32,000 bases of DNA, from NCBI RefSeq assembly GCF_000017305.1, contig NC_009664.2:4140001-4172000 (forward strand). The letters run 5' to 3'. This DNA comes from Kineococcus radiotolerans SRS30216 = ATCC BAA-149 (lineage in GTDB: Bacteria; Actinomycetota; Actinomycetes; Actinomycetales; Kineococcaceae). A program made the position numbers and the translations under genes. Under the pieces are notes generated by a model that was given only the letters and a program-made list of their open reading frames with translations, had not been told where the DNA came from and searched no databases. Positions 11,187 through 25,090 of the stretch are shown here, in pieces (within the stretch, counting starts at the first letter, position 1; every line of letters starts with the position of its first letter).

Positions 11187-12158
11187 GTGGATGCGTTCAG
11201 CGACCTGATGCGGGGTGTGCGGGCCCACGGCTCGCTGTTCGCCAGTTCCACCCTGACGGCGCCGTGGTCGCTGCACTTCGTCGACGGGGCACCGCTGACG
11301 CTGTGCACCGTCCTGGGGGGAGCGGGCTGGATCGTGCCGGAGCACGAGGCGGCGGTGCGGGTCGGTGCCTACGACACGGTGCTCGTGCGCGGGCCGGGGA
11401 CCTTCACCTTCGTCGACGAGGTCGGGACCACGGCGGTGCCGGTCGTCTGCGGGGTGGACTGCGCGACGCCCGAGCAGGGCGGCACCCGGCACCGGCTGGG
11501 CTGGCACGACCCCGGCGCGCCGGACGACGACGGGAACGGGACCACGACCCTCCTCGTCGGCGCCTACCCGGCGCGGGGCGAGATCAGCCGCCGACTGCTG
11601 GAGGCGCTGCCCGTGGTGCTGCGGGTCGAGGCCGGCGGTCGCGCCGACCCCGTGCTGGAGCACCTCGCCGCCGAGGTCGCCGTCGACGCCCCCGGTCAGC
11701 AGGTCGTCCTGGACCGGCTGCTGGACTGGATGCTGGTCTGCACGTTGCGCACCCACTTCGACCGTCCCGGCGGGCGCGCGCCGGCCTGGTGGACGGCCCA
11801 GCGCGACCCCGTGGCGGGCAGGGCGCTTCAGCTGCTGCACGCCGAACCGGCGGCGCCGTGGACGGTCGCGGCGCTGGCCGGGCGGGTCGGGGTGTCCCGG
11901 GCGACGCTCGCCAAGCGCTTCAGCGACCTCGTCGGCGAACCTCCGCTGACGTACCTGACCCGCTGGCGCATGACCCTGGCCGCGGACCTGCTGCTGGACC
12001 GGCCGGAACTGACCGTCGCCGGGGTCGCCCGCAGCGTGGGCTACGCGGAGCCGTTCGGTTTCAGCGCCGCGTTCAAGCGGGTCCGGGGCCTCAGCCCGAG
12101 CGAGTTCCGGCGCACCACGGCCGCCGGTCCCGCCGTGGACGCGTCGAGCACCGCCTAG
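11187..12158 (+). CDS. AraC family transcriptional regulator (cupin + HTH)
   Basis: The N-terminal VDAFSDLMRGVRAHGSLF is the cupin_6-type start. The C-terminal HTH reads WTVAALAGRVGVSRATLAKRFSDLVGEPPLTYLTRWRM...GYAEPFGFSAAFKRVRGLSPSEFRR. Confidence 0.8.
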   Translation: MDAFSDLMRGVRAHGSLFASSTLTAPWSLHFVDGAPLTLCTVLGGAGWIVPEHEAAVRVGAYDTVLVRGPGTFTFVDEVGTTAVPVVCGVDCATPEQGGTRHRLGWHDPGAPDDDGNGTTTLLVGAYPARGEISRRLLEALPVVLRVEAGGRADPVLEHLAAEVAVDAPGQQVVLDRLLDWMLVCTLRTHFDRPGGRAPAWWTAQRDPVAGRALQLLHAEPAAPWTVAALAGRVGVSRATLAKRFSDLVGEPPLTYLTRWRMTLAADLLLDRPELTVAGVARSVGYAEPFGFSAAFKRVRGLSPSEFRRTTAAGPAVDASSTA

Positions 12159-13132
12159 GGCCGGTCCTGCGGTTCGCGGGATCGCGACCGGACCCCGGTC
12201 GCGGTGCCCGGGTCAGGGGTCCGGTCGCCCGCGGTCGCGGCGAGGTGGGAGGCGAGGACGTCGCGCACGGTGGTCCACTCCCGGTGGCCGTAGCGGTCGT
12301 TGTCGACGTGGCGCAGTTGGCCCTGGCCGCTGAACATGCTGACGAAGTACTGCATGCCCTGCCAGGCCGGGAACGTCTCGTCGGGGTTCCCGGCGAAGCG
12401 CCGGGCCACCTTGCTCACCGCCGAGAGCGATCCCGCGGTGCCCGCCCACTGGAGCGTGAAGCGCTGCCCCGTCAGTTCGCTCATCGTCCGGGCCACGTCC
12501 CGTGCGCTGACCCGGTCCCCGGCGACCTCCACCACGCGAGGGGCGTCGGGGTCGAGGGCGACCGCGGCGACGATCGCGGCGACGTCGTCCTTGGTGGTGA
12601 AGTCGAGCACCTGGTCCGCGGAGGACCAGAACAGCACGCGCCGGCGGGTGAAGGAGATCATCGGCGCCTGCCCGGTGAGCATGTCGGCGAAGGCGCCGTT
12701 GAGCACCGACGTCGAGCGCAGGGGAGCGGCGTCGACGTCGGCGGCGAACTCGCGGCGCAGTTCGAGGTTGCGGTTGCTGCCCAGCGCGATCCGGCGGTAG
12801 TCCGCGGAGTAGTCGGAGGGGATGAACCGGGCGACGCCGGCTCGCGCCGCCGCGTCCAGCAGGACCCGCTGGGCGTCGACGATCACCGGGCGGGTGCCGC
12901 TGAGCGCGGAGACGACGGTGTCGATCCCGGTGAGGGAACCGGCCAGCGCCTGCGGGTCCGCGTAGGTGGTCTCGACGACGTCGACGCGCGGGTCGTCGGC
13001 GAAGAGGGACCCCGCGGCGCCGCTGCCGGGGCGGGTGAGGACGCGGACACGGGTGTCGCGGGTGAGGAGCTCGCGGGTGATGCGGCGTCCGAGGTCGCCG
13101 GTGGCGCCGGCGACGAGGATCGAGGTGGTCAC
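12155..13132 (-). CDS. NmrA-family NAD(P)-binding protein
   Basis: VTTSILVAGATGDLGRRITRELL is the Rossmann start, and RFIPSDYS is also present. GTG 13132 lies 10 nt downstream of the MarR stop on the same strand. The gene end overlaps the AraC stop by 4 nt. Confidence 0.8.
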   Translation of the reverse strand: MTTSILVAGATGDLGRRITRELLTRDTRVRVLTRPGSGAAGSLFADDPRVDVVETTYADPQALAGSLTGIDTVVSALSGTRPVIVDAQRVLLDAAARAGVARFIPSDYSADYRRIALGSNRNLELRREFAADVDAAPLRSTSVLNGAFADMLTGQAPMISFTRRRVLFWSSADQVLDFTTKDDVAAIVAAVALDPDAPRVVEVAGDRVSARDVARTMSELTGQRFTLQWAGTAGSLSAVSKVARRFAGNPDETFPAWQGMQYFVSMFSGQGQLRHVDNDRYGHREWTTVRDVLASHLAATAGDRTPDPGTATGVRSRSREPQDRP

Positions 13133-13142
13133 GGGTGGGTGC

Positions 13143-13724
13143 TCAGCTTCCGGTGGAGGGGCGCGGGGTTCGACGGGTCGACCGGTGGGGTGCGGCCAGG
13201 GGTTGTTCGGCGGGGGTCCCGGACGAGAGGGGTGAGCACGCCTCGACCGCACCGGCGCTCAGGGCGACACGAGCCAGCAGGTGCCGGAGCTGGGTGCGTT
13301 CGCCGGCGTCGAGGGCGTGCATCAGCGTCTCCTCCACCTCGCGCAGCGCGACGCGGGCCCGGGCGAGCAGGGCTCGTCCGCTGTCGGTGGGGAGCACCTC
13401 GCGCACCCGGCGGTCGCGGGGGTTCGCGCGCCGCTGGACCAGGCCCGCGTTCTCGAGGGCGTCGACCACGTACGTCATGGCGGTCTTGTCGATGCCCAGG
13501 CGCTGGGCCAGGAGGAGCTGCGAGGTCGCCGGTTCGGTGGTGACGGCGACCAGGACCTGGTAGCCGCGGGGGCCTCCGGGGACGGCGTCGACGGCGGTGA
13601 CGGCGGTCCGGGCGAAGCCCTGGTAGACGGCCTGGAGGGACCAGCCCAGTTCGGTCTCGATCCCGCCGGCGTCCCAGTCGATCGCGGCCTCCGCCGCTGG
13701 GCCTCCGGGTGCGCTGTCGGTCAT
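13143..13724 (-). CDS. MarR family transcriptional regulator
   Basis: YQVLVAVTTEPATSQLLLAQRLGIDKTAMTYVVDALENAGLVQRRANPRDRRVREVLPTDSG is a winged helix. The gene is divergent from the epoxide hydrolase gene. Confidence 0.8.
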   Translation of the reverse strand: MTDSAPGGPAAEAAIDWDAGGIETELGWSLQAVYQGFARTAVTAVDAVPGGPRGYQVLVAVTTEPATSQLLLAQRLGIDKTAMTYVVDALENAGLVQRRANPRDRRVREVLPTDSGRALLARARVALREVEETLMHALDAGERTQLRHLLARVALSAGAVEACSPLSSGTPAEQPLAAPHRSTRRTPRPSTGS

Positions 13725-13941
13725 GGCGCCACCGTATCCCGCTCATACCTTCTCAGCAACAAATCGTCTCAAACTCAGAAGATCTGTGCCATGGTGTCCC
13801 CACGAGACGCGGTACGGGGTCGACGCCCACCGCACCCGAGCCGCGACGTTCCCGCGGCGTTCGGACGGCCACGTCCGGGCGGTCCGCCCCGGCCCGACCC
13901 GTCTCGTCCCGTCCCACCTGCTCCGACAGCGAGGAACCACC

Positions 13942-15171
13942 ATGACCACCGGAACCGGCACCCGCGAAGACCGCACGAACCCCGGGAGCGGTGAGGCCGC
14001 GGACGCCGTCCGCCCCTTCGTCCTGGACGTGCCCCAGGCCGACCTCGACGACCTGCGGCACCGGCTGCTGCGCACCCGCTGGCCCGACCGGGAGACCGTC
14101 GCCGACACCACCCAGGGCCCGCAGCTCGAGCGGGTCCAGCGACTCGTCGCGCACTGGAGCGGCGCCTACGACTGGCGTCGCGCCGAAGCGCTGCTGAACG
14201 GCTGGGGGCAGTTCACCACCCGCATCGACGGTCTCGACGTCCACTTCGTCCACGTCCGGTCCCGCGTCCCCGGCGCGCGTCCGCTGCTCCTGACCCACGG
14301 CTGGCCCGGATCCGTCCTGGAGTTCCGCCACGCGGTCGGGCCGCTCACCGACCCGGAGGCGCACGGCGGCGACCCCGCCGACGCCTTCGACGTCGTGATC
14401 CCCAGCCTGCCCGGGTTCGGTTTCTCGGGACACCCCACCGCTCCCGGCTGGAACCTCCAGCGCACCGCTCGGGCGTGGTCCGTCCTGATGCGGCGCCTGG
14501 GCTACACCCGCTGGTTCGCCCAGGGTGGCGACCTCGGCGCCTCGGTCACCGCCGAGCTCGCCGCCCTGCACCAGCGCAACGACATCGGGCTCGCCGGGAT
14601 CCACCTCAACATGGCGCTGTTCAGCCCGACCGACGACGAAGCGGCTGCCGCCGACCCCGCCGAGCAGGCGATGCTGCGGGAGGGCGGCTACTACTGGCAG
14701 ACGCTCTCCGCGTACTCCCAGCAGATGTCCACGCGACCGCAGACCATCGGCTACTCCCTCACCGATTCCCCGGTGGGACTCGCGTCGTGGATCTACGCCA
14801 TGTTCCAGGACGTCGGCGGTTCCCACGACGCGCACGGCGACGTCGAGGCGCTGTTCTCCCTCGACGAGGTGCTCGACGACGTCATGCTCTACTGGCTGCC
14901 CAACGCCGCCGCCTCCGCGGCCCGCATGTACTGGGAGATGAACCAGGTCGGCTGGGCCAACGCCGGCACCCTCGAGGAACCCCTGACCGTGCCGACCGGT
15001 CTGAGCGTCATGCCCGGGGAGTACGTCCGGCGTTCCCGCCGGTGGGCCGAACGCCGCTACACCGACCTCGTCCACTTCAGCGAGGTGGCCGACGGAGGGC
15101 ACTTCGCCCTCCTGGAGCAGCCCGAACTCCTCGTCGCCGACATCCGGTCCACCTTCCTGACCCTCCGCTGA
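13942..15171 (+). CDS. epoxide hydrolase (EHN domain + alpha/beta hydrolase)
   Basis: PFVLDVPQADLDDLRHRLLRTRWPD, IDGLDVHFVH, LLLTHGWPGSVLEF and FAQGGDLGA are present. ATG 13942 has GAGGA about 6 nt upstream, so the ORF-track start at 13723 is judged too long. Confidence 0.85.
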   Translation: MTTGTGTREDRTNPGSGEAADAVRPFVLDVPQADLDDLRHRLLRTRWPDRETVADTTQGPQLERVQRLVAHWSGAYDWRRAEALLNGWGQFTTRIDGLDVHFVHVRSRVPGARPLLLTHGWPGSVLEFRHAVGPLTDPEAHGGDPADAFDVVIPSLPGFGFSGHPTAPGWNLQRTARAWSVLMRRLGYTRWFAQGGDLGASVTAELAALHQRNDIGLAGIHLNMALFSPTDDEAAAADPAEQAMLREGGYYWQTLSAYSQQMSTRPQTIGYSLTDSPVGLASWIYAMFQDVGGSHDAHGDVEALFSLDEVLDDVMLYWLPNAAASAARMYWEMNQVGWANAGTLEEPLTVPTGLSVMPGEYVRRSRRWAERRYTDLVHFSEVADGGHFALLEQPELLVADIRSTFLTLR

Positions 15172-15194
15172 TCGGAGCCCCCACCGGACGGGGC

Positions 15195-15640
15195 TCACCC
15201 CTGACCGTCGTACGGGGACCCGGGGGCCTGAGTTTCCCCGGGTTCCCGGGTGGGGTATCGCGGTTGGAGCCGGTGGGGTCCTCCGCTCCGCCGGGCCGCA
15301 CCGCGGGGCCCGGTCGAGAAGGACCGGCTGGACAGGCTGCCGACCTCGACGGTGAGGATCGCCTCAGGGGTGCTGCGCCGGTCCTCGTAGCTCATCGTCC
15401 AGCCCAGCGGCTGCCCGGTGTCGTGGTCGCTGACCGGCCCGACGTGGACGGCGCGGTCCAGGTCGGGGTCGACGCCGAGGAGGGCGTCACGGAAGACGGC
15501 GGTGGCGGTTGCCTGCGGGCCGGGGGTCGCCGTCGCGGACGGGGTGGACGCCGGGCCGGGAGACGGTGCGCTGGCGGTCGGGGCCGGAGCGGTGGACGTC
15601 GACGGGTCGTCCGAGGTCCACCGCGCACCGGCGACGGCGC
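15195..15640 (-). CDS. hypothetical protein, Ser/Thr/Pro-rich linker plus C-terminal domain; 5' end unresolved
   Basis: Only the C-terminal part looks protein-like (TAVFRDALLGVDPDLDRAVHVGPVSDHDTGQPLGWTMSYEDRRSTPEAILTVEVGS). The only in-frame start (15800) overlaps the sigma remnant by about 100 bp. It may be a decayed partner of the sigma gene. Confidence 0.3.
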
Positions 15641-15696
15641 GCGACGGGGTCGCCGGCCCCGCCGGGGTTCGTCCGCGCCGGTGTCGGACGGGTGGG

Positions 15697-15975
15697 TCAT
15701 GGCCGGCCTCCGGTCTTGGTGCGCTTACCGGAGGGACGAGGGGGGCTGGTGCGAGGCTCCGGACCGCGGCGGTCGAGGCCGGTGCGGTCGTCGCGGTCAC
15801 CGGGTCCGAGGTGGGCCTGCAGGACGCTGCGGGCGTGGTGGACGTGGCTCTTGACGGTGCCTTCAGTGATGCTCAGGGCGGCGGTGACCTCGCCGATGGT
15901 GAGGTCCTCGACGCAGCGCAGCAGGACCACCGCGCGCTGGCGCGGGGGAGCGCGGCGATGGCGTCGGGCGGATGG
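15697..15975 (-). pseudogene. ECF sigma factor remnant: region 4 only, plus a 1-nt frameshift
   Basis: PRQRAVVLLRCVEDLTIGEVTAALSITEGTVKSHVHHARSVLQAHL is sigma-70 region 4. The preceding DAIAALP lies in another frame across a G5/C5 run at 15944-15948. No region 2 exists upstream, where a plus-strand GNAT gene sits instead. Confidence 0.65.
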
Positions 15976-16487
15976 AGGATGAGGTCGTGATCCTTCGAGC
16001 GGTGCAGCCGGCCGCGGACGCGGCGGTGGCCGCCAGGCTCCTGCGGCTGCAGCACGACGCCTACGCGGTCGAGGCGGCACTGATCGGTGACGACCGCATC
16101 CCACCGCTGCACGAGGACCTGGAGGCGCTGCGTGCGACCTCGCTGCGTTGGTTCGCGGCCTTCGACGGGGACGAGCTGCTGGGCGCCCTGGGCTGGACGG
16201 AGGACGACACCGGCGTCGACATAGACCGGCTGGTGGTGGCGGTGCACGCCCACCGACGAGGGGCGGGCACCCGACTGGTCCGTGAGGTCCTGCTGCAGGC
16301 GGGAGGACGTTCCGCGACCGTGTCGACGGGACGCGACAACGGCCCGGCCCGAGCCCTCTACGAACAGCTCCTGTTCACCCGCGTCGGTGATCGGGAGGTT
16401 CTGCCCGGTCTGTGGGTCGTCGACTACCGGCGCCCGTCTGCCACCTCGCAGGACAGCGGTGACAGTTCCGCATCAGGACAGAAGTGA
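15972..16487 (+). CDS. GNAT family N-acetyltransferase
   Basis: IDRLVVAVHAHRRGAGTRLVREVL is the acetyl-CoA motif A (R/QxxGxG/A). NGPARALYEQLLF is also present. Third-codon-position GC is high in this frame. Confidence 0.7.
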   Translation: MEDEVVILRAVQPAADAAVAARLLRLQHDAYAVEAALIGDDRIPPLHEDLEALRATSLRWFAAFDGDELLGALGWTEDDTGVDIDRLVVAVHAHRRGAGTRLVREVLLQAGGRSATVSTGRDNGPARALYEQLLFTRVGDREVLPGLWVVDYRRPSATSQDSGDSSASGQK

Positions 16488-16665
16488 CACTGCTGCCGGT
16501 CTCGATGGTGCACTTCCCGGGCTCCTGATCAGTGGGTGAGGGCGTCCATGCCTGCCGGCGAGGCACCTTCGACTTACTGCTCACTGGTCAGACTCATGAC
16601 GAAGAGCGAGTGGCCTCAAGGCGTAGCCATCGGGGCTGTGACGACGAGTTCCGAGCCCCGGTCGG

Positions 16666-17595
16666 CTAGAGCCAGTAGGGCACGGCCCCGTGGAACGGCA
16701 ACTGCGCGGAGGCGTAGTACTCCTCCACGGACTGCTCACCCCTCGGCAGCACCGGCAGCAGCAACCCCCGCGTGGTGGCGACGTCTTGCCAGGTCATCGT
16801 GCGGATGTCAGCACTCAACTGCAGCCAGACGGACCCGTCGCGGTTCTCCCGCACCCGCCCACCCGCGGGCAGGACGCTCAGCAACGCGCGCAGGGCGGGG
16901 AGCCCACCGATGACCTCCAGGTGAGCAGGGCGCAGCAGGACACCCCAGCCGTACCCCCACAGGGTCCTGCGCAGGTCACGTTCCCACCACGGAGCGCCCA
17001 CGGCGATCTCCCAGGCGCTGCTGGTGTTGCTGGCGCTGACGTGCTCGTCGAGGGTGAGGTAACCGGTCAGAACGTGGTGCTCGACGCCGGCGCGGCAGAT
17101 CCACTCGGCCAGGGCGTGGGCGGGTGCGGTGGCGTCGTGCTCGCGCAGCAACGCCTGGGGGACCGAGATCGAGAGCGTCGCCCCACGCAGGTCGAGGCAG
17201 GCCTGGAGCCTGTCATTCCAGAAGGTTTCAGGATCGGTGGAACGGCCCGGGCGTTGCGCGGAGACGGCGACGTCCTCGAGGCGGTCTGCTCGCAGGTCTG
17301 CCGTGGGGCCCAGCAGCTCTTCTCCCGCGGTGGCGCGTTCCAGGGCGCTCAGTGCGGTCTCGAGGTCGGTGTCGTACTCGCCGCGGGCGGGTGGGCGGCG
17401 ACCTGCGAGATCGTCGCTGGTGCGCAGGTGGTACTCCGTCCAGTCGGTCACGGTGGGGTGCAGGTGCGGGGCGAGGGCGTTGCGCAGGGCGTCGGTGAGC
17501 AGCAGGGCGAGCTGGGCGGGGGTCGCGGTCTCGGGGGGCAGGGCGACCGCGGCCAGCAGCTGGCGGCGTTCCTCACCGCTGGGGACGGCGTGCAC
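16666..17595 (-). CDS. hypothetical protein (309 aa), possibly immunity-like
   Basis: GTG 17595 has GAGGAG 5 nt upstream. I recognise no catalytic motif. The C-terminal WGVLLRPAHLEVIGGLPALRALLSVLPAGGRV is reminiscent, from memory only, of DUF3396/Imm52-type immunity proteins. Confidence 0.6.
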   Translation of the reverse strand: MHAVPSGEERRQLLAAVALPPETATPAQLALLLTDALRNALAPHLHPTVTDWTEYHLRTSDDLAGRRPPARGEYDTDLETALSALERATAGEELLGPTADLRADRLEDVAVSAQRPGRSTDPETFWNDRLQACLDLRGATLSISVPQALLREHDATAPAHALAEWICRAGVEHHVLTGYLTLDEHVSASNTSSAWEIAVGAPWWERDLRRTLWGYGWGVLLRPAHLEVIGGLPALRALLSVLPAGGRVRENRDGSVWLQLSADIRTMTWQDVATTRGLLLPVLPRGEQSVEEYYASAQLPFHGAVPYWL

Positions 17596-17738
17596 GGATG
17601 CTCCTCGGGATCGGCAGGGGTCGATGCAGCAGGTTCAGCGCTCGAAGGCCCGGCGGCGATGTGGAAGTCACGCGAGTGGGCGACCCACATCCACGATCAG
17701 ACCCGTCTCCGCAGTCTGCCGCAGGCACCCGTGCGCGC

Positions 17739-17749
17739 GGTCATCCCGC
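17739..17749 (+). repeat. junction repeat copy a (core GGTCATCCCGC)
   Basis: Context is gtgcgcgcGGTCATCCCGCGgatggtgcgcgg. The second box ACGTCGCGGTCAT follows 45 nt downstream. The copy is intergenic. Confidence 0.8.
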
Positions 17750-17773
17750 GGATGGTGCGCGGCCCAGCCGCCG

Positions 17774-17807
17774 GCAACGTCGCGGTCATGGCAACGTCGC
17801 GGTCATG
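17774..17807 (+). repeat. perfect 17-bp tandem duplication GCAACGTCGCGGTCATG x2 (second-box sequence of junction a)
   Basis: Read directly: 17774-17790 and 17791-17807 are identical. Confidence 0.85.
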
Positions 17808-17912
17808 ACGATGACCAGGAGATCACCGAGAGCTCAGGAAGCCGGATGAGAAGCTGTAGTGCGGTCGTCGTCGACTCGCCGGTCATCACCGCAAGTGGAG
17901 AGGTAGGCGTCG

Positions 17913-18215
17913 ATGGTCCACCTGGAACGTCACGAGTCCACGATCATCCTGTCCATGGGGCTAGAGGAAGCTGCGCGGCTCTCTGCAGCACTCACCGAGG
18001 CGACGTTGGCGCTGTCTCGAGCCGAGTACTGGATGCGGGTGGGGTGCCCGAAGTCTTCCGTGGAGCAGCTCTCGGACCTGCTTCGCCTTGCCTCGAAGGG
18101 GAAGGGGCAGGGTGCCAGCGTCGCGTTGCCGCCCGGTGAGGAGGAGCAGGAGAATCCCCGGCGACCTCGACCTGGTAGCGACAGCACGGCCCAGCGGGGC
18201 GCTTCGCCGGGATGA
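17913..18215 (+). CDS. hypothetical small protein (100 aa), cassette 1
   Basis: The ATG has GGAGAGG 9 nt upstream. The N-terminal ~65 aa are helical (LEEAARLSAALTEATLALSRAEYWMRVGCPKSSVEQLSDLLRL) and are followed by a charged tail. The stop codon lies inside CGGGATGA, which is complementary to the junction b core. Confidence 0.6.
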   Translation: MVHLERHESTIILSMGLEEAARLSAALTEATLALSRAEYWMRVGCPKSSVEQLSDLLRLASKGKGQGASVALPPGEEEQENPRRPRPGSDSTAQRGASPG

Positions 18216-18237
18216 GGCACCAACACACCGACTTTCC

Positions 18238-18248
18238 GGTCATCCCGC
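18238..18248 (+). repeat. junction repeat copy b (core GGTCATCCCGC)
   Basis: Context is ccgactttccGGTCATCCCGCGtggtgcgcgctgcc. The second box GACGTCACGGTCATGGCC starts 46 nt downstream. CGGGATGA (18208-18215) can pair with TCATCCCG (18240-18247). Confidence 0.8.
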
Positions 18249-18368
18249 GTGGTGCGCGCTGCCACCGGCGACCGAGACGTCACGGTCATGGCCAGGCCGT
18301 TGCCGTCGGGTCACCCCCTCGGCTTCGTCATACATGCGCCGAGCACCCCGACTCACTAGCTTGCTGAC

Positions 18369-18662
18369 ATGATCTTCAAGCGGCAGCCCACGCCAACAGC
18401 AGCCGACATCCCCGATGACGAGGACGCCCCCGGCACGCTGCAATGGCTGCAGGCTTGGTACACCCTGCAGTGCGATGGAGAGTGGGAGCACGGCTGCGGC
18501 ATCTCCATCAGCACTTTGGACAACCCCGGCTGGCACGTGAGCATCGACCTCACGGACACCGCACTGGCCGCCCAGGACGTCGCCCGCCAGGAGGTGCACC
18601 GCAGCGAACACGACTGGTACACCGTGGGGTCTGCCCCTACTTCAGTTGACCCTCGTCAGTAG
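18369..18662 (+). pseudogene. Imm53-like polymorphic-toxin immunity protein, 3' end replaced by IS terminal sequence (cassette 2)
   Basis: LQWLQAWYTLQCDGEWEHGCGISISTLDNPGWHVSIDLTDTAL matches my recollection of the Imm53 family signature (W..CDGDWEH..GI.I.TLDNPGW...IDL..T). From codon GGG at 18627 the reading frame runs into the IS inverted repeat. Confidence 0.6.
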
Positions 18663-18668
18663 GGGCGG

Positions 18669-19541
18669 TCAGGCCGCGTGAGCGGCTTGCAGGAGTGTCT
18701 CGTACTCGATGGGTGTCAGTCGACCCAGCGCTTGCTGACGACGGCGGCGGTGATAGGTCCCCTCGATCCACGAGACGATGGCCAGGCGCAGCTCCTCCCG
18801 ACTGGCCCAGCGCCGGCGGTTGAGGACGTTCTTCTGCAGCAGGCTGAAGAACGACTCCATGGCGGCGTTGTCCGCGCAGGTCCCGACCCGACCCATCGAC
18901 CCACGCGCTTGCCCTGCCGAAAGAGCGCGAAGGTAGCGGTGGGAACGAAATTGGGCTCCGCGGTCCGAGTGGACCACGAGCTCAAGGACATCGGTCCCAC
19001 CGCGCAGTGCCAGCGCGTTCGACAGGGCTTGGACGGCGAGGTCGGCAGTCATGCGGGCATCGATGGAGTAGCCGACGATGCGGTTGGAGCAGGCGTCCTT
19101 GACCGCGCAGAGGTAGAGCTTGCCTTCGGCGGTGGGATGTTCGGTGATGTCGGTTAGCCAGAGGGCGTTCGGCTTCTCAGCGGTGAACTTACGGCGGACG
19201 AGGTCGTCGTGCACGGGTGGTCCCGGCCGGCGCCCGGCGCCGCGTCTGCGGGCGTGGGCTGAGAACAGCTTCTGCAGGCTGCACAAGCGCTGGACGCGGT
19301 TGCGCGAGGTCCTGACGCCCTGCTGCTGCAGCTCGTCGGCGATGAAGCGGTAGCCGAACTCGGGGTCGTCGTGGTGGATGTCGACGGCGGCGTTGAGGAG
19401 GTGAGCGTCGTTCCAGTCCCGGTCGGTGACCGGAGCGGCGCGCCACTTGAAGTAAGCCTGCTTGGAGAAGCCCAGCACCCGACAGGTCACCGCGACGGGG
19501 ATCCCGTCGCCGGCAAGGTCACGGACCAGCGGGTAGATCAT
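18669..19541 (-). CDS. IS3-family transposase OrfB (DDE integrase core)
   Basis: The DDE triad context is WLTDITEHPT, VVHSDRGAQF and CADNAAMESFFSLLQKN. The frame is intact. Confidence 0.85.
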   Translation of the reverse strand: MIYPLVRDLAGDGIPVAVTCRVLGFSKQAYFKWRAAPVTDRDWNDAHLLNAAVDIHHDDPEFGYRFIADELQQQGVRTSRNRVQRLCSLQKLFSAHARRRGAGRRPGPPVHDDLVRRKFTAEKPNALWLTDITEHPTAEGKLYLCAVKDACSNRIVGYSIDARMTADLAVQALSNALALRGGTDVLELVVHSDRGAQFRSHRYLRALSAGQARGSMGRVGTCADNAAMESFFSLLQKNVLNRRRWASREELRLAIVSWIEGTYHRRRRQQALGRLTPIEYETLLQAAHAA

Positions 19542-19846
19542 TTTGGCAACGTGTCACGGGCGAAGTACGCCGTCGCCCGCCGCAGGATCTCGTTCTCCTG
19601 CTCCAGCTGCTTGGCCCGCTTACGCAGCTCCCGGTTCTCCGCCTCGAGGTCCACGCCCACGGCAGGCGTGCTGTTGGACGCCGTCTTGCCGTCCTCGCGG
19701 TCAGCGATCCTCAGCCAGCGACCCAGGCAGGACTCGGAGATCCCGAAGCTGCTAGCGATCTTCGCTCGGGTCTGCCCGCCTTGGCGGGCGACGGCGATCA
19801 CGTCGCGGCGGAACTCGTCGGGGTAGCGCTTGTGCACGGTGCTCAT
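19538..19846 (-). CDS. IS3-family transposase OrfA (HTH)
   Basis: MSTVHKRYPDEFRRDVIAVARQGGQTRAKIASSFGISESCLGRWL is followed by the coiled coil LEAENRELRKRAKQLEQENEILRRATAYFA. It overlaps OrfB by 4 nt (CCAAAATGATC). Confidence 0.8.
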   Translation of the reverse strand: MSTVHKRYPDEFRRDVIAVARQGGQTRAKIASSFGISESCLGRWLRIADREDGKTASNSTPAVGVDLEAENRELRKRAKQLEQENEILRRATAYFARDTLPK

Positions 19847-19982
19847 CCTTCCAGCGAGGACCATGATCCTCACAGGTCGGAGTCAACCAAAGCGGGGGCA
19901 GACCCGACGGTCTTCAACGTCGGCAGCAGCGTCACTGCAGGGCCCGAGACCTGATCCCCACCCTGCACGAGCTCAAACCGCG

Positions 19983-19993
19983 CGGTCATCCTG
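19983..19993 (+). repeat. junction repeat copy c (variant GGTCATCCTGC)
   Basis: Context is aaaccgcgcGGTCATCCTGCGatatgggtgcgcc. A GGTCAC box lies 48 nt downstream. The copy sits 28 nt after the putative original Imm53-like stop (19952-19954). Confidence 0.7.
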
Positions 19994-20007
19994 CGATATG
20001 GGTGCGC

Positions 20008-20373
20008 CTACTCGCCCGCCCCGGTGCGCCAGGTCACCGACAAAATGGGCTTGGTCTGCAACCACAAGCCCTCGACAGGCAGCTGATCGTCGAAGACGAG
20101 GCCCAGCAGCTCCCGCCCCGCCCGCTTCTCCACCACCAGCGACCGCACCTGATGCAGCTCCAGACCCACCAGCTCATCACCGCCCGAGCTCAGCGACAGC
20201 TTGACCAGCTCCGAAGCCGGCTCCACCTCAACCTCCACGTGGAGGGAGCCACGAGTCAGGGCGAAGCGGACGCAGGCGTAGGACCACGGCGCGTCCTCGA
20301 CACCGAAGGGGTACACCGGCTCGCTCTCGAAGAGCCAGACCAGGTCCTTCAGCGCGGGCATCGGATCCATCAC
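20008..20373 (-). CDS. hypothetical small protein (121 aa), cassette 3
   Basis: MMDPMPALKDLVWLFESEPVYPFGVEDAPWSYACVRFALTRGSLHVEVEVEP... has a beta-rich, non-repetitive composition. The antisense ORF 20002..20586 is Q/R/H-rich and is rejected. Confidence 0.6.
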   Translation of the reverse strand: MMDPMPALKDLVWLFESEPVYPFGVEDAPWSYACVRFALTRGSLHVEVEVEPASELVKLSLSSGGDELVGLELHQVRSLVVEKRAGRELLGLVFDDQLPVEGLWLQTKPILSVTWRTGAGE

Positions 20374-20428
20374 CTGATCACTGTGCCTGTTGTCCGCGCG
20401 ACTGCGCGCCCCGCCACCGAGACTCCAC

Positions 20429-20439
20429 GGTCATCCCGC
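20429..20439 (+). repeat. junction repeat copy d (core GGTCATCCCGC)
   Basis: Context is ccgagactccacGGTCATCCCGCtggtctcgtg. It is flanked by the 6-bp inverted repeat CGAGAC/GTCTCG. Confidence 0.8.
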
Positions 20440-20695
20440 TGGTCTCGTGTGTCAGGCCGTCCATCCTGGAGCTTCGGCCCTGCAAACGTGCTCAGGCGCG
20501 TCTGGATCTCCGTGCTCCATCTCGTACGAGCACTCCCCGCACCCCTCGGTTGGATCATGCTCTCGCCAGTCATGGCCACAGGTTGAGCAATCGCCGTGGT
20601 AGGCCTACCGGGCTCGCTCCTCCTGCCGGCGGGTCCACCACAGCCTCAGCGTCTGGCGCACGTCATGAGCATGGCAGTAGCGGCGCCGACTTCAC

Positions 20696-20706
20696 GGTCA
20701 TCCCGC
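20696..20706 (+). repeat. junction repeat copy e (core GGTCATCCCGC)
   Basis: Context is agcggcgccgacttcacGGTCATCCCGCagatcgggtcac. The 5' flank is nearly identical to that of copy g. Confidence 0.8.
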
Positions 20707-20853
20707 AGATCGGGTCACTTGGAGCCCTCCACTACTCACCGTTCAGCTCGCTCAACGTCTCCGCGTCCACCGCCCGGGGAGCGGCCTCGATGTAGACCAC
20801 CGCCTGTCGAGGCCCGGCTTTGATGGAGACCTGCAAGTGACGCCTCCGAGAGG

Positions 20854-21183
20854 ATGATGGTCTCCATGGCTGCGCCCAGGAAGTACCCCGACGAGCTGCG
20901 TGAGCGAGCTATCCGTATGGCGCTGGACGCGCGCCGCGACCCCACCACCCGGGTCAACGCCTTCAAACGCATCGGCGGCCAGCTCGGCATCAACGCCGAG
21001 ACCCTGCGCAACTGGGTCCTGCAGGCCGAGGTCAACGCCGGCGACCGGCCCGGTACTACGACCGACGCCGCGGCTCGCCTGGCCGAGCTCGAGCGGGAGA
21101 ACCGTGAGCTTCGCCGAGCCAACGAAATCTTGCGCCGCGCATCGGCTTTCTTCGCGGCGGAGCTCGACCGCCCCTCTCGCTGA
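20854..21183 (+). CDS. IS3-family transposase OrfA (HTH)
   Basis: MAAPRKYPDELRERAIRMALD...NAETLRNWV is followed by LAELERENRELRRANEILRRASAFFAAE. Confidence 0.8.
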   Translation: MMVSMAAPRKYPDELRERAIRMALDARRDPTTRVNAFKRIGGQLGINAETLRNWVLQAEVNAGDRPGTTTDAAARLAELERENRELRRANEILRRASAFFAAELDRPSR

Positions 21184-22102
21184 GCACCTGGCCAAGCACC
21201 GACCGGGTCGTCGAGTTCATCGACACCAACAAGCAGGAGCTGGGAATCGAGCCGATCTGCCGTGAGCTGCAGATCGCCCCCAGCACGTACTACGCCGCCC
21301 GCCACCGACCACCCTCGGCCCGCGCGGTCAGCGACCAGGCCGCCCTGGTCGAGATCAACGAGGTCCACGCCGAGAACCTGCGCGTCTACGGAGCCAGGAA
21401 GCTGCACGCAGCCATCAACCGCCGCCGCGCCCAGCGCTGCCCACCGGGCCAGACACCGGCCCGCATCGCGCGCTGCACCGTCGAACGCCTGATGCGCTCA
21501 GCCGGACTGCACGGGCTACGCCGCAACGGTAAGCCACCACGGACCACGGTCTCAGCCGCACCCGATCAGCGCCCGGACTTGGTGCAGCGGAGGTTCTCCG
21601 CTGAGCGTCCTGACCGTTTGTGGGTCGCCGACATCACCTACATCCGCACCTGCTCGGGCTGGGTCTACGCTGCGTTCGTCACCGACGTCTGCACCCGGCG
21701 GGTCGTGGGCTGGCAGGTCGCCACCCACCTGCGGACCGAACTGGCCCTGGACGCGCTGCAGATGGCGTTCTGGGCCCGCCGGCGCGAAGGCGTGGACCTG
21801 ACGGGGCTGACGCACCACAGCGACAAGGGCGTCCAATACGTCGCCGTTCGCTACAGCGAGCGTTGGCCGCTGAGGGTGCGGTCGCCTCCGTCGGTTCTAC
21901 CGGTGATTCCTACGATAATGCGCTGGCGGAGGCGTTCAACTCCCTCTTCAAGACCGAGTGCATCCGCAACCCTCACGTCCCCGGCCGCGACGGTCCCTGG
22001 CGCGGCATCGACGACGTCGAGATCGCGGTGGCGGAGTACGTCGACTGGTACAACCACCGACGCCTGCACGGCGAGCTCGGGATGATTCCGCCGGTGGAGT
22101 AG
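21180..22102 (+). pseudogene. IS3-family transposase OrfB with internal 1-nt frameshift
   Basis: The frame is open from 21180, with DDE context WVADITYIRT and THHSDKGVQY. After VRYSER (about 21863) the frame breaks. The conserved remainder LAAEGAVASVGSTGDSYDNALAEAFNSLFKTE...WYNHRRLHGELG continues in another frame. CGTTGG is present where CGTTTGG would restore the frame. Confidence 0.75.
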
Positions 22103-22164
22103 GAGGCCCGCTTCAGCACCACTCCCGCCCTGACGGGCGGCTGAGCGTTGCTTCACACCCTCCA

Positions 22165-22461
22165 TCAGACCCGGGCCTTGACAGCCTCAACGACCCTGCC
22201 GCGCTGGCCTCGGGGTGCAAGCACCCGGCGCACCGCAGCAACCGCAGCCTGGACGGCCACTTCTTCATCCGCCTCGGTCAGTGCCGGGCTGATGATGGCG
22301 ACGCGTCCACCCCCATCCGTGGGGTCCTGCACGCAGGGCTCACCCGGTAAGGAAGCGGCCAGGGCGTCGAGGTCCTCAGACGTCCACGGCTGTTCCAACT
22401 CCCAGGTCAGGTAGACGGTATGGCCCACCTCGGTGTCGTCGACCACCACACGAGGATGCAC
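22165..22461 (-). pseudogene. hypothetical small protein interrupted by the IS at its 3' end (cassette 5)
   Basis: The ORF reads MHPRVVVDDTEVGHTVYLTWELEQPWTSEDLDALAASLPGEPCVQDP.... Its stop codon (22165-22167) lies inside the IS terminal repeat. A strongly coding-looking tail (QAVVYIEAAPRAVDAETLSELNGE, stop at 20732-20734) lies left of the IS. Confidence 0.5.
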
Positions 22462-22497
22462 CAGACCCGACAGCTCGCGTCACGTCGGGGAACGTCC

Positions 22498-22508
22498 GGT
22501 CATCCCGC
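22498..22508 (+). repeat. junction repeat copy f (core GGTCATCCCGC)
   Basis: Context is gtcggggaacgtccGGTCATCCCGCcgcctgggcgg. A degenerate second copy ACGGGTCCGCGCTCA lies about 30 nt downstream. Confidence 0.8.
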
Positions 22509-22573
22509 CGCCTGGGCGGTTGACGGGTCCGCGCTCACGACCAAACGCCCCGCACTGCACCACACTGGGTCAC

Positions 22574-23038
22574 GTGCCAGCGCCCACCTCGGATCACCTC
22601 CGATCTGACCTGTGCCGCACCTGGGACGACGTCGCCGCCGGACGCCTCAGCCGCACCGCCGCCGCCGACTGGGCCGCCGACCCCGACCGCGCCCTGGACT
22701 ACTCCAGCGGACCCGAGCCACTGCACCAGGCGTGGCTGCTCCTGCACGACCTGCGCCGCGCCCCGCTGAACGAAGCCGCCGTCATCAGCGGCGGCCACCT
22801 CGCACGCGATGAGCTGGCCATGCGCCGGCGTGAGCAGTGGCAGGCCGAGCTCGCCCGCTACGACGCGGACCCGTTGAGCTGGAACCGCACCCACTGGAGC
22901 GCCTACCTGCGCCGCACCGTCGAAGCGGGCCGCCACCCCGCACCCGACCGCCTCGCTGCCCGACTCATCGAGCACGGCCTCTTCCTCGACCAGGATGCTG
23001 CGGCGGTCCTGGATGAGGCCTGGTCAAACCGTACCTGA
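22574..23038 (+). CDS. hypothetical protein (about 154 aa), cassette 6
   Basis: From GTG 22574 the protein reads VPAPTSDHLRSDLCRTWDDVAAGRLSRTAAADWAADPDRAL...SWNRTHWSAYLRRTVEAGRH.... The ORF-track start at 22433 would read across junction f, so a later start is preferred. It is helical and Trp-rich. Confidence 0.5.
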   Translation: MPAPTSDHLRSDLCRTWDDVAAGRLSRTAAADWAADPDRALDYSSGPEPLHQAWLLLHDLRRAPLNEAAVISGGHLARDELAMRRREQWQAELARYDADPLSWNRTHWSAYLRRTVEAGRHPAPDRLAARLIEHGLFLDQDAAAVLDEAWSNRT

Positions 23039-23055
23039 GCGGGGCGGCACTTCAC

Positions 23056-23066
23056 GGTCATCCCGC
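23056..23066 (+). repeat. junction repeat copy g (core GGTCATCCCGC)
   Basis: Context is tgagcggggcggcacttcacGGTCATCCCGCGctcagtgcgcg. The second box GACGTCGCGGTCTT lies 47 nt downstream. The copy sits 18 nt after the cassette 6 stop. Confidence 0.8.
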
Positions 23067-23159
23067 GCTCAGTGCGCGATCATGGACAGTCGGCGACGTC
23101 GCGGTCTTGTCGATCTGGGGACGTCCAGGTGGGTGGGCTGGCGCCCTTCCGTCGAACGC

Positions 23160-23546
23160 TCAGGCCCGGACCTCCCGCTCCAGACGTCGGGCGGTCACCC
23201 GGTAGCCGCCTTCCCCGAAGCAGTGCCACAGCTTCGCCCCGCTCGCCCGGGCCAGCTGGTGGAGGCCGGTCAGGACGGTGCGGACGTCCTCCTCCCGGGC
23301 GTCGGCGTCGAGGCCGAGCTCACCGACCACCACCCGGCACCGGCCGTCCTCGCCACGCAGGAGATTGATGTCGTACACCGCCGTCGGCAGGCTCCACGAC
23401 CCCTCGTCCTCACCGTCGACCAGGTCCGCGCCCAGCGCGTCGAAGCGCCGCCGCAGCAGCGCCTCATCGAGAACGGCCAGTCGGTCCAGGGCGTCCTCGT
23501 CGTAGTGGCGCAGACGGCCGGCGAAGACCGCGTACTCAGTGCCCAC
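23160..23546 (-). CDS. hypothetical protein (128 aa), distal gene of two-gene cassette 7
   Basis: GTG 23546 is preceded by GGAGGAGG. The protein reads VGTEYAVFAGRLRHYDEDALDRLAVLDEALLRRRFDALGADL...LWHCFGEGGYRVTARRLE. The upstream part of ORF 23160..23930 is off-frame. Confidence 0.55.
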   Translation of the reverse strand: MGTEYAVFAGRLRHYDEDALDRLAVLDEALLRRRFDALGADLVDGEDEGSWSLPTAVYDINLLRGEDGRCRVVVGELGLDADAREEDVRTVLTGLHQLARASGAKLWHCFGEGGYRVTARRLEREVRA

Positions 23547-24144
23547 CGGGACCTCCTCCCGGACCGGTGCCGACCACGGACAGTGCGAAGTCGTGCAGGA
23601 GGTCGGGGTCCTGCCCCCGCTGGTACATGTGCTGAGCCAGGGCCTGGCCGTAGACGATGCCGACGGGGTCGACCTCCGCGGAGCCGTGCGCCCACGGCCC
23701 CTGGAGCATGGTGGCGTGGTGGTTGATGTCGCGGGCCCGGCCCCGGCTCTTCTGCCGGTACACGATCCACCGCGCCTGCGGCACGGCGGTCTGCAGGACG
23801 GTGCCCAGGTAGGCGGCGACCTCGTCGACCAGGCGCAGCTGGCGCGGGGACAGGTAGCGGGTGGGGCGGTCGGTGATCGGGTCGCGGTCGGGCAGCGGCT
23901 GCTGCACGTCCCACCACAGCGGCGACTCATCGAAGCCGTCGTCGGTGTCGTCGGTGTCGGCGTCCAACCGCGCGACGAACCAAGGCCCCAGCTGCCGCAG
24001 GCTGTCCACGCTGCCGTCCAGGCGCGGCCCGCCGGTGCCAGCCACCTGCTCCTGGAGACGCTGCACCAGCCGCGGCAGCGCCGCCATGTAGGCGTCGCGG
24101 TGGGCCAGCGCCTGCTCGTGGCTCATCTCCATGAACTTCAGCAC
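23536..24144 (-). CDS. hypothetical protein (202 aa), proximal gene of two-gene cassette 7
   Basis: The protein reads MLKFMEMSHEQALAHRDAYMAALPRLVQRLQEQVAGTGGPRLDGSVDSLRQLGPWFVARL.... Its stop overlaps the start of the next gene by 11 nt. Confidence 0.55.
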   Translation of the reverse strand: MLKFMEMSHEQALAHRDAYMAALPRLVQRLQEQVAGTGGPRLDGSVDSLRQLGPWFVARLDADTDDTDDGFDESPLWWDVQQPLPDRDPITDRPTRYLSPRQLRLVDEVAAYLGTVLQTAVPQARWIVYRQKSRGRARDINHHATMLQGPWAHGSAEVDPVGIVYGQALAQHMYQRGQDPDLLHDFALSVVGTGPGGGPGGH

Positions 24145-24260
24145 GCGATCACGTTAGAGAGTGCGCTTCAGCCGGAGAGACGCCATCACCGCACCAGGGC
24201 CGGGCAGCCGCCCTGCCGGGCTGGACACAGGCGGCATCGGCAGCTGGTGACGGATCTTCC

Positions 24261-24271
24261 GGTCATCCCGC
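24261..24271 (+). repeat. junction repeat copy h (core GGTCATCCCGC)
   Basis: Context is gacggatcttccGGTCATCCCGCGttgtgggcgccgatcac. Confidence 0.8.
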
Positions 24272-24285
24272 GTTGTGGGCGCCGA

Positions 24286-24735
24286 TCACTCAGGCTGGCA
24301 ACCCTGCCCACTCTCCAGCGCCGCGACGTCAGGACACCGGTCGTGGCTCCACTCCCCGGAGCCGAAGGAGTCCGCGGTGGCGTCGGTGAAGACCTCCACC
24401 CCCTCACCGGGCCGCACCCGGTAGTACGTCTCGATCGGGTCGCCTTCCGTGGTCAGCGACGTCACCAGGACCTCCGCACCTTCGCGCTGCGCACCCGCGC
24501 TGAGCAGGCACTCCGTCAGGGCCGTCGGGATGGGCTGGGCCTGGGGGACGGTGATCGAGGCGCACTGCGGCAAGGGGGAGCGTTCCCGGAACGCCGCCGG
24601 GGCTCGCCCGCCGGCGCTGAGCTGCCACACCACCCATGCGCCCATGCCGGTGGCGAAGAGCAGCAGCACGACGCCCAGCACTGTGACGAGGGGGACGGGT
24701 CGTCTCGGCGGGGCTCCAGCGACTGTGCTGTCCAT
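24286..24735 (-). CDS. membrane-anchored protein with Cys-containing extracytoplasmic domain (DUF4362-like), cassette 8
   Basis: ATG 24735 gives MDSTVAGAPPRRPVPLVTVLGVVLLLFATGMGAWVVW as a TM anchor. VLVTSLTTEGDPIETYYRVRPGEGVEVFTDATADSFGSGEWSHDRC resembles, from memory, the T.EGDPI...D.t.D.fG...C pattern of DUF4362. Confidence 0.5.
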   Translation of the reverse strand: MDSTVAGAPPRRPVPLVTVLGVVLLLFATGMGAWVVWQLSAGGRAPAAFRERSPLPQCASITVPQAQPIPTALTECLLSAGAQREGAEVLVTSLTTEGDPIETYYRVRPGEGVEVFTDATADSFGSGEWSHDRCPDVAALESGQGCQPE

Positions 24736-24795
24736 CTCCGCATGATGCTCGCGCACTGGCAGGTGCGAAGGGTCGTTCGACGCATCCGACGTCAC

Positions 24796-24806
24796 AATCA
24801 TCCCGC
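24796..24806 (+). repeat. junction repeat copy i (variant AATCATCCCGC)
   Basis: Context is ccgacgtcacAATCATCCCGCGctgttg. A related box GAGACGTCACATCAC lies at about 24886. Confidence 0.65.
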
Positions 24807-25090
24807 GCTGTTGTAGGTGGCCGCCGCCAACTCAGCTCCAAGATCGTCGCAGATGTCCTGACCATCGACTGTCGCCGATGTCCTGAGACGTCACATCACT
24901 GAGGCTTCGTCAGCAACGCTTCGTCCTTGCGGGCGAACCCTCACCGGGTCGTTGTTCATGGGCGGACGTCGGAGCGCTGGGCGGTCCACATCGGCCGGTG
25001 ACGATCGTCGTCTGCTCATCGCCCGCGGGTCGCGTGGGGAGCCGCCAGGGCCACGGATCCCACGGCACGACGCTCTGTGACGATGCAGGG

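Follow-up and report, generated by a model that had tools for sequence, protein, structure and literature searches.

A site-bounded array of probably mobile gene cassettes in Kineococcus radiotolerans and its likely relation to a Xer-like tyrosine recombinase

Junction sites, boundaries and cassettes of the array

The chromosome of Kineococcus radiotolerans SRS30216 was analysed over a window of 32,000 bp (contig NC_009664.2, forward strand, positions 4,140,001 to 4,172,000), to which all plain coordinates given below refer. The window, placed at genes Krad_2841 to Krad_2851 by exact protein matches, contains an array (16568-24816, plus strand) of ten cassettes, nine canonical junction sites and one boundary site-like sequence, as delimited by a synteny break, a weight matrix and GC content. 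Comparative sequence analysis indicated that the region is, very probably, a site-bounded array of mobile cassettes. The data as a whole favour, with reasonable confidence, an integron-analogue system associated with a Xer-like tyrosine recombinase, of which the array in the window would be an orphan representative.

An original prediction, made from this stretch of DNA, had recognised nine same-strand copies of an intergenic motif, and all nine were present. The 11-bp core GGTCATCCCGC occurred exactly at seven plus-strand positions (17739, 18238, 20429, 20696, 22498, 23056 and 24261), and two variant cores lay on the same strand, GGTCATCCTGC at 19984 (this one had been placed at 19983) and the decayed AATCATCCCGC at 24796, as predicted. 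Core matches with at most one mismatch averaged 1.8 in shuffled sequences, and nine were reached in none of 100 shuffles. A 30-bp weight matrix was trained on 136 Kineococcus junctions, which had been gathered using the 11-mer core as a pattern, so that this set informs on flank conservation only. Over the 32-kb window, the matrix recovered exactly the same nine sites, all on the plus strand, with scores between 18.7 and 35.7 bits, whereas shuffled sequences scored at most 13.4; the remaining 24 kb held zero copies.

All nine sites fall between open reading frames (ORFs) and not within a conserved coding sequence, again as had been claimed. The sole overlap concerned site 24796 and a longer alternative start, RefSeq using the shorter 149-aa product. 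Raw core-to-core spacings were 499, 1746, 445, 267, 1802, 558, 1205 and 535 bp. Once two IS3-family insertion sequences (ISs) were subtracted, the spacings of 1746 and 1802 bp came down to approximately 440-465 and 420-440 bp, close to the 462 and 439 bp of the prediction. According to codon-position GC content, each interval holds a single plausible ORF, which may lie on either strand, with the exceptions of 23160-24132, which has two, and 20440-20706, which has none. The ORFs of the window cassettes, listed as + + + - - + - - -, are located on both strands and are not co-directional. The GC content of the array ranged from 0.67 to 0.72, against 0.74 to 0.79 across most flanking DNA.

The left limit of the array was provided by a second K. 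radiotolerans strain, GCA_014191015 (locus L129; loci outside the window are referred to by such numbers). Its sequence was 97.2% identical across window 5836-16583, and synteny broke at ...GA(C/T)TTAC(T/C)GCTCA, around 16583-16586. A left-arm-like sequence, CGACTTACTGCTCA/CTGG, lies at this boundary (16568-16590, plus strand), at which the two strains lose homology: the window reads ...GACTTACTGCTCA/CTGGTCAG and L129 reads ...GATTTACCGCTCA/TGGCGAAAG (slashes mark the break), divergence beginning past TCA. This sequence scored below threshold under the canonical weight matrix and may represent a variant primary site. The array had been predicted to extend from 17739; as the variable region actually begins further left, at about 16586, the 309-aa ORF at 16666-17595 was added as a tenth cassette (cassette 1). 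This ORF (minus strand, WP_012087437, a Krad_2852-side hypothetical with a third-codon-position GC content of 0.89) had no Pfam, NCBIfam or PADLOC match and was missing from the equivalent locus of the second strain.

The first canonical site (17730-17759, core 17739-17749, 23.1 bits) has an atypical left arm, GTGCGCGC. A repeat search identified 3' of it a palindrome, here called Box B (GGTCATGACGATGACC, 17801-17816, plus strand), with two half-site repeats ACGTCGCGGTCATG before it. ORF analysis assigned to cassette 2 a 100-aa product without family match (Krad_2851, 17913-18215, plus strand), followed by site 2 (18229-18258, 33.6 bits). Cassette 3 (18369-18662, plus strand) codes for an Imm53 polymorphic-toxin immunity protein (PF15580, E=5e-25, profile positions 1-64 of 92), the 3' end of which is truncated by the first IS3-family insertion; a short remainder of the cassette continues to about 19954. 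This insertion (approximately 18611-19922, minus strand; orfA 19538-19873, orfB 18669-19541) showed rve, HTH_21 and HTH_Tnp_1 domains and terminal inverted repeats. Site 3 (19975-20004, 24.8 bits), which contains the core at 19984, precedes the 117-aa ORF of cassette 4 (Krad_2847, 20008-20361, minus strand), found by homology in arrays of two other genomes as well. After site 4 (20420-20449, 25.4 bits) comes cassette 5 (20440-20706, plus strand), a 267-bp unit without convincing ORF that is 94% identical, core to core, to interval 14 of L001, the second array of strain GCA_014191015; candidates for its content are a small RNA, a very short ORF and a promoter.

Site 5 (20687-20716, 34.1 bits) is followed by the second IS3-family insertion (20804-22184, plus strand; orfA 20854-21183), delimited by 25-bp terminal inverted repeats with TG...CA ends. 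This copy is probably dead, because its orfB is disrupted. An ALIL pseudoknot, the programmed-frameshift element of IS3, was detected in it at 21144-21281 with 41.8 bits, under the gathering score of 50. It was the only Rfam match over the window, nothing being found at the junctions. Domains, pseudoknot and terminal inverted repeats together establish the two IS insertions that had been proposed. On the basis of ORF analysis and IS boundaries, cassette 6 carries an ORF of 98 aa as read (22165-22461, minus strand), its 3' end being broken by the second insertion, and ends at site 6 (22489-22518, 25.0 bits). Cassette 7 (22580-23038, plus strand) has an ORF of about 150 aa without family match, shared by homology with L001; site 7 (23047-23076, 35.7 bits) and, in a repeat scan, a Box B-like GGTCTTGTCGATCTGG (23103-23118, plus strand) lie 3' of it. 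Two overlapping ORFs of 127 and 198 aa constitute cassette 8 (23160-24132, minus strand, Krad_2842-side), for which only a weak sub-threshold DUF6278 match was obtained. Site 8 (24252-24281, 33.4 bits) separates it from cassette 9, with a 149-aa ORF (WP_238985776, 24286-24735, minus strand) that has a hydrophobic N-terminal segment. Site 9 (24787-24816, 18.7 bits), with the decayed core, is the last recognisable one. Imm53 accounts for one of the ten cassettes; the others received no family assignment in Pfam, NCBIfam or PADLOC. Outside the array, a plus-strand ORF of 1100 aa (10241-13543) was considered as a polymorphic toxin and rejected as a high-GC artefact, antisense to real flavodoxin-like, NmrA-like and MarR genes.

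Cassette exchange, distribution and site anatomy

The locus is polymorphic between the two K. radiotolerans strains. Past the synteny break, L129 holds six co-oriented sites and unrelated cassettes (e.g. PadR/HAAS). L001 lies in a different genomic context of the same genome and comprises 20 co-oriented sites in 13 kb. Window block 19984-20696 recurred in L001 at 94-95% identity and cassette 7 (22498-23056) in its interval 4 at 85% over 569 bp, core to core, the shared cassettes having a different order and different neighbours. The presence of a two-cassette block in different arrays of two strains indicates that movement between arrays happened within the history of the species. Cassette 4 was, core to core, 95% identical to its L001 counterpart and 86% identical to that of L040, with unrelated upstream neighbours.

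The same pattern was found in six groups of homologous cassettes, covering 15 contexts. Sequences upstream of the 5' core were unrelated in every group; homology began right past this core, spanned the gene and finished with the left arm and core at the 3' end (six groups out of six). Beyond the 3' end, sequences were unrelated in most groups, the exception being the pair formed by the window and the second strain, in which two adjacent cassettes are syntenic. The location of these breakpoints implies that exchange occurs within or beside the invariant core, and their pattern suggests that each site takes its left arm from the upstream cassette and its right arm from the downstream one. Related strains had been expected to differ cassette by cassette at motif boundaries, and both the L129 array and the six groups agree with this. 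The cassettes would consequently qualify as discrete mobile units bounded by sites. A copy of window 22544-22994, 87% identical and inverted, was also observed at L129:15979-16429, past the last recognisable site of that array, which suggests older, decayed or inverted cassettes beyond the scored boundary.

A scan of one genome per species was performed with pattern ACNTCACGGTCATCCCGC, and the genus-wide counts given here cover only the matches listed. These included 39 loci in Kineococcus, where at least 15 species or strains were represented, often by several contigs per genome, and 81 loci in unrelated taxa with exactly one weight-matrix match each, i.e. a chance seed. The 39 Kineococcus loci contained 147 weight-matrix sites; at least two sites were present in 35 loci and a single orientation in 37. 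Exact cores within loci were co-oriented in a ratio of 180:3, the median interval was 748 bp, and the longest good ORF per cassette was located on the site's strand in 42 cases and on the opposite one in 47. Within the window and the loci listed, clustering and orientation, together with the lack of a folding signal (see below), set the motif apart from a dispersed, two-orientation repetitive extragenic palindromic (REP) or miniature inverted-repeat transposable element, in agreement with the original prediction.

The logo of the 136 junctions was conserved only between positions -9 and +20, cGACyTCAC-GGTCATCCCGC-GgTsyGsGCG; the flanks of the predicted consensus were indeed conserved and are refined by this formula. 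Conservation of the centre is supported independently by the nine cores of the window itself, seven of them exact, and by the genus-wide arrays. The cleanest form of the site was seen in tandem gene-less units, where sites are 20-37 nt apart: CGCGCACGG-TCATCCCG-CGGTGCGCG, with 9-bp arms inverted at 8 of 9 positions about an asymmetric 8-bp centre. Inverted arms around an asymmetric centre, here within the 6-8 bp expected, are the layout of simple tyrosine-recombinase sites (lox, FRT, dif). Such gene-less tandem sites occurred in L099, L122, L126, L127 and L038, in runs of up to four, with perfectly mirrored arms (GCGCAC...GTGCGC); they may have arisen by slippage or because empty circles integrated repeatedly, or they may serve as a landing pad. 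Across the 136 junctions, a dyad-symmetry scan detected a small CGG/CCG dyad only, arm symmetry being clear only in the gene-less units. Additionally, 19 of 184 Kineococcus sites (about 10%) were followed, modally 47 nt downstream, by a Box B (TCWTGNCGA, GACGTCGCGG-TCWTGNCGATGASC).

Integron attC sites are imperfect palindromes that act in a folded, single-stranded state; apart from their R''/R' boxes (RYYYAAC ... GTTRRRY), the sequence is variable. When both strands of each of the nine window junctions were folded as single-stranded DNA, no excess stability emerged (z between -2.4 and +1.3, centred on 0), the lowest values, -2.2 to -2.4, being confined to the 20429 junction, and GTTRRRY/RYYYAAC boxes were not present at the junctions. 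The motif did not resemble dif either, and the view that it is neither attC nor dif was upheld.

A Xer-like recombinase and the cargo of related arrays

Clustering of ORFs over the Kineococcus loci yielded one recurrent enzyme, a 308-aa tyrosine recombinase (family P0041) with PF00589 and an N-terminal SAM-like domain. Its best PDB match was E. coli XerD (1a0p), the catalytic residues R, K, H-x-x-R, H and Y being aligned. Its scores against curated models were 118 bits for XerC (cut-off 335) and 116 for XerD (cut-off 330), and, for integron integrases, 53 bits for TIGR02249 (cut-off 265) and 29 for PRK15417 (cut-off 435). In seven out of seven independent Kineococcus genomes, the gene lies inside a co-oriented array and on the site's strand: K. 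vitellinus (L086), TRM81007 (L045), SYSU DK001 (L113, frameshifted), SYSU DK025 (L025), K. endophyticus (L122/L123), DHX-1 (L126, 15 sites) and NBC_00420 (L127, 29 sites in 21 kb). A left arm and a variant centre, (C/G)ACTTCAC-TCATCTGCCGATGA, follow the recombinase stop codon in L086, L113, L122, L126 and L127, not in L045. The site 3' of the recombinase gene reads CACTCATCTGCCGATGA, and the TCATCTGCCGATGA palindrome also trails the homologue from Jatrophihabitans. Among PLSDB plasmids, the only recombinase match was a 41%-identical one from Pseudonocardia.

Two neighbours of the recombinase gene are worth reporting. In several Kineococcus arrays, a conserved ORF of about 176 aa, divergent from it and without Pfam match, was found on the minus strand just upstream (L122:5008-5538, L127:9166-9696, L025:6733-7410); it could represent an accessory or directionality factor. 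Likewise, a toxin-antitoxin pair adjoins the gene in four genera (L124:11055-11578, L125:11028-11542, L130:1140-1768, L086:1029-1723), the types being Phd/ParE, RHH with a partner, HicB and VapBC. By analogy with toxin-antitoxin cassettes, which have been proposed to stabilise chromosomal integrons, these pairs may stabilise the array.

Homologues from five other actinobacterial sources were examined: Cellulomonas (L124), Motilibacter (L125), Jatrophihabitans (L128), Actinotalea (L130) and a Nocardioidaceae metagenome-assembled genome (L131). All five were flanked by related TCATGCCGC sites with the centre TCATGCCG(C), often followed by TGCCGATGAGCG. Most of these sites shared the strand of the recombinase: for the exact 9-mer, the distribution was 6:0 and 4:0 in two loci, for 0.4 expected, and for a relaxed pattern it was 40:10 overall. 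The centre of the site is TCATCCCG in Kineococcus and TCATGCCG in the five other genera; this change of centre with recombinase lineage argues for a functional pairing of site and recombinase.

Two of these loci displayed unusual repeats. In Motilibacter peucedani (RBWV01000009, L125:14990-15530), a run of 16-17 perfect tandem 34-bp units (GCATCGCGCGC TCTTGCCGC TCTGCGCGCGGGTA) begins directly after a TCATGCCGC-type site and looks like a series of gene-less recombination sites, comparable to the 26-29-bp tandem units of Kineococcus. Its identification as a CRISPR array was rejected, as there are no spacers. In Jatrophihabitans (L128:3028-11300), the repeat is longer, about 55 bp (ACATCCGGTCATGCCGCTGACGTGATCGTTTCCGACGCACTGATCTGCCGATG), and two of its six copies, which flank a DUF1254/DUF1214 gene, are inverted; orientation is accordingly not strictly uniform in every genus.

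Cargo of the related arrays was surveyed through precomputed Pfam labels from five loci. Related arrays carry immunity proteins (WapI and Imm5-like), toxin-antitoxin pairs of the VapBC, Phd, ParE and HicB types, GNAT acetyltransferases, APH phosphotransferases, regulators, MFS transporters and a TerD/SNIPE protein, while approximately half or more of their genes are without family. Neighbours of the homologues outside Kineococcus comprise small ORFs, toxin-antitoxin pairs, Imm8, Imm5-like, SMI1/KNR4, GNAT and APH proteins. The cargo is accessory and defensive; its profile is comparable to that of sedentary integrons and of the Bacteroidales rAID-1 arrays discussed below, and appears broader than that of a pure polyimmunity locus.

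Proposed mechanism, alternative explanations and known systems

In the proposed mechanism, each junction, about 26-30 bp long, would be a recombination site used in double-stranded form, composed of a left arm (cGACyTCACGG), an invariant asymmetric centre (TCATCCCG) and a right arm (CGGTGCGCG-like), the arms stemming from the upstream and downstream cassettes, respectively. Two direct sites recombining with each other would release the cassette between them as a circle with one site, and such a circle would be inserted through recombination with any site. The near-invariant centre would be the strand-exchange region, which has to match between partner sites and whose asymmetry would set direction. 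Such a role would explain both the conservation of the centre and the strict co-orientation of sites, which the asymmetric centre would fix whichever way the gene within may face. The P0041-family enzyme from arrays of other Kineococcus genomes is the likely catalyst, an assignment which we hold with some reserve. A recombinase may have acted in trans on the array of the window, formerly or from another place in the genome, or a more divergent enzyme may do so; the array may also be inactive now. It is probably an orphan array, similar to the attC clusters that have no integron integrase (CALINs), since there is no recombinase in the window and no labelled homologue, and since it has received two IS3 insertions and contains two decayed cores.

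Several observations weigh against this explanation. All the evidence comes from sequence analysis. As the prediction had stated, tblastn detected no tyrosine recombinase in the 32-kb window; a recombinase 3'-end remnant suspected by eye at 16480-16590 (GGCACCT..CGACTT.AC) was discarded, as its local alignment scores of 19-25 did not stand out from those of shuffles (mean 20). Named cluster members at 79% identity or more included no K. radiotolerans-labelled homologue, which is no proof of absence. Taken together, both negative results make present-day activity at this locus doubtful. Arm symmetry was limited, in gene-bearing cassettes, to the inner 5 bp (CACGG/CCG(c)G), and fixed-register covariation was absent among the 136 junctions; combined with the lack of folding signal, the latter result also indicates that the site is not attC-like. 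Counts on dispersal cover the 32-kb window and the listed loci. Finally, the recombinase gene is located mid-array and not at a defined end, and it could be a mobile element merely preferring these arrays, because its family is very large and conserved (7495 matches, 75-80% identical across orders, multi-copy in some genomes).

This last point leads to the alternative that survives best, although it was judged unlikely: cassettes are real, the P0041 recombinase is a passenger or self-mobile, and the mover is a housekeeping XerC/XerD, another integrase or a nuclease. Besides the size, conservation and copy number of the family, it draws on the arrays of K. radiotolerans, a species with no homologue detected, and on the mid-array position, IS3 and IS110 copies likewise inserting into arrays. 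It has to face the location of the gene on the site's strand within arrays of all seven independent genomes, the site-like ACTTCAC and TCATCT... sequences after the recombinase stop in most loci examined (not in L045), a site unlike dif, and the centre that tracks recombinase lineage.

Less probable still is the reading of the motif as an element of regulation or structure in intergenic DNA (an operator, part of a promoter, a terminator or a REP-like sequence), with modularity arising through homologous recombination at short repeats. The sites are indeed short, conserved, GC-rich and intergenic, and the extra half-site repeats associated with about one in ten of them could be protein-binding iterons. 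However, orientation is fixed irrespective of gene strand, as the 42:47 distribution among the matches listed illustrates, no hairpin, T-run or Rfam match was found, the motif is confined to arrays in the window and in the Kineococcus loci listed, and tandem sites without genes, spaced by 20-37 nt, leave nothing to be regulated. Moreover, identities of 11-30 bp are short for RecA-type exchange, yet breakpoints fall there in all six cassette groups.

Modules of the Xer/dif type, moved by host XerC/XerD as in Acinetobacter pdif modules, were given slightly less credit still. A dif-like site has 28 bp, with a XerC arm, a 6-bp centre, which is AT-rich in dif, and a XerD arm; pdif modules are flanked by inverted XerC-XerD/XerD-XerC sites. 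Short gene modules recurring in varied contexts and bounded by tyrosine-recombinase-type sites of about 28 bp are common to both systems, and the Kineococcus enzyme is Xer-like in architecture, with XerD as best PDB match. However, the sites found here are unrelated to the AT-rich-centred dif consensus and all direct, whereas those of pdif are dif-like and alternate in orientation, and the enzyme, with about 118 bits against XerC/XerD cut-offs of about 330, is multi-copy and resides in accessory regions.

A classical integron remnant (CALIN), in which IntI acts on folded single-stranded attC sites, can be regarded as effectively refuted: the layout of the array, the small size of its cassettes, the many ORFan and toxin-antitoxin cassettes and the absence of an integrase are all CALIN-like (Cury 2016, PMC4889954), but the junctions are conserved in sequence and not in structure, with folding z around 0 and without RYYYAAC/GTTRRRY boxes, ORFs point in both directions, the recombinase reaches 53 bits for an integron-integrase cut-off of 265, and complete integrons were missing from all Actinobacteria genomes surveyed (Cury 2016, PMC4889954). 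Resemblance to integrons is nevertheless extensive, with arrays of small mobile cassettes, discrete and site-bounded, one co-oriented site per junction, strain-to-strain turnover at a fixed locus, a cargo of ORFans, toxin-antitoxin, acetyltransferase and defence-type genes, integrase-less arrays and an associated tyrosine recombinase. Differences concern the site, a sequence-conserved, double-stranded-type element of about 30 bp in place of the folded, structure-defined attC with its GTTRRRY boxes; the recombinase, Xer-like, far under the IntI cut-off and encoded within the array on the site's strand, whereas the integron integrase, which has an IntI-specific extra domain, is divergent at one end; and the genes, which lack the co-orientation of integron ORFs, so that they have no common Pc-driven expression.

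The original prediction had also compared the array with recombinase-associated immunity arrays of Bacteroidales. In view of the Xer-like recombinase in sister arrays, its cassette-array reading is supported and this analogy was the most apt. These rAID-1 arrays combine a XerD-family recombinase, arrays of small genes, repetitive intergenic sequences, skewed GC and orphan immunity genes (Ross et al. 2019, 10.1101/471110). They are defined there by a 5' recombinase (at least 44% identity to BF9343_RS08045) and at least two co-directional downstream genes, close recombinase homologues being reported only in Bacteroidales (Ross et al. 2019, 10.1101/471110). The Kineococcus arrays share with rAID-1 the association with a Xer-like recombinase (in sister arrays), repetitive intergenic sequences and deviating GC. 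Immunity genes are present among other cargo: Imm53 in one of the ten window cassettes, and WapI, Imm5-like, Imm8 and SMI1/KNR4 in related arrays, next to GNAT, APH, toxin-antitoxin, MFS and regulator genes. They differ in having genes facing both ways, where rAID-1 genes are co-directional, a recombinase mid-array or absent instead of 5', hosts among Actinomycetota and a much broader cargo. Exchange of cassettes with breakpoints at the repeats, seen here by comparison, was only suggested for rAID-1 in the part of the report considered (Ross et al. 2019, 10.1101/471110).

Polyimmunity loci, described in some actinobacteria among others, are strain-variable tandem arrangements of immunity genes, sometimes beside XerC/D-like recombinases (Zhang et al. 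2012, PMC3482391). Their genes are described as co-oriented, closely spaced and probably polycistronic, without a defined junction site, whereas each unit of the present arrays is site-bounded and immunity genes are a minority. On balance, the system appears closest in kind to Bacteroidales rAID-1 and functionally integron-like. In the literature searched, the coverage of which was incomplete, no description of such arrays in Actinobacteria was found, which amounts to absence of evidence only.

A larger proposal can be derived from these data, for which we consider the chances to be even. The distinct and highly conserved Xer-like clade, whose homologues number in the thousands (Kineococcus, Cellulomonas, Actinotalea, Motilibacter, Jatrophihabitans, Nocardioidaceae and others), would constitute a widespread and previously unrecognised, integron-analogous gene-capture system of Actinomycetota, operating on sites of about 26-55 bp (centre TCATSCCG). 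It would stockpile and shuffle cassettes for immunity proteins, toxin-antitoxin systems, antibiotic-modifying enzymes and unknown products, with several arrays per genome, some of them recombinase-less. With a compact, directional site, the recombinase would also lend itself to direct assays of excision and integration in high-GC hosts, and the 30 bp of the site would offer a simple sequence handle for collecting thousands of unknown cassettes with immunity, toxin-antitoxin or resistance-like functions. Integrons are the textbook device for gene capture and shuffling. If the proposal is true, an integron equivalent that relies on another clade of recombinases and on an ordinary double-stranded site would mean that cassette stockpiling evolved more than once, and it would account for some of the accessory genome that is specific to strains of soil actinomycetes.

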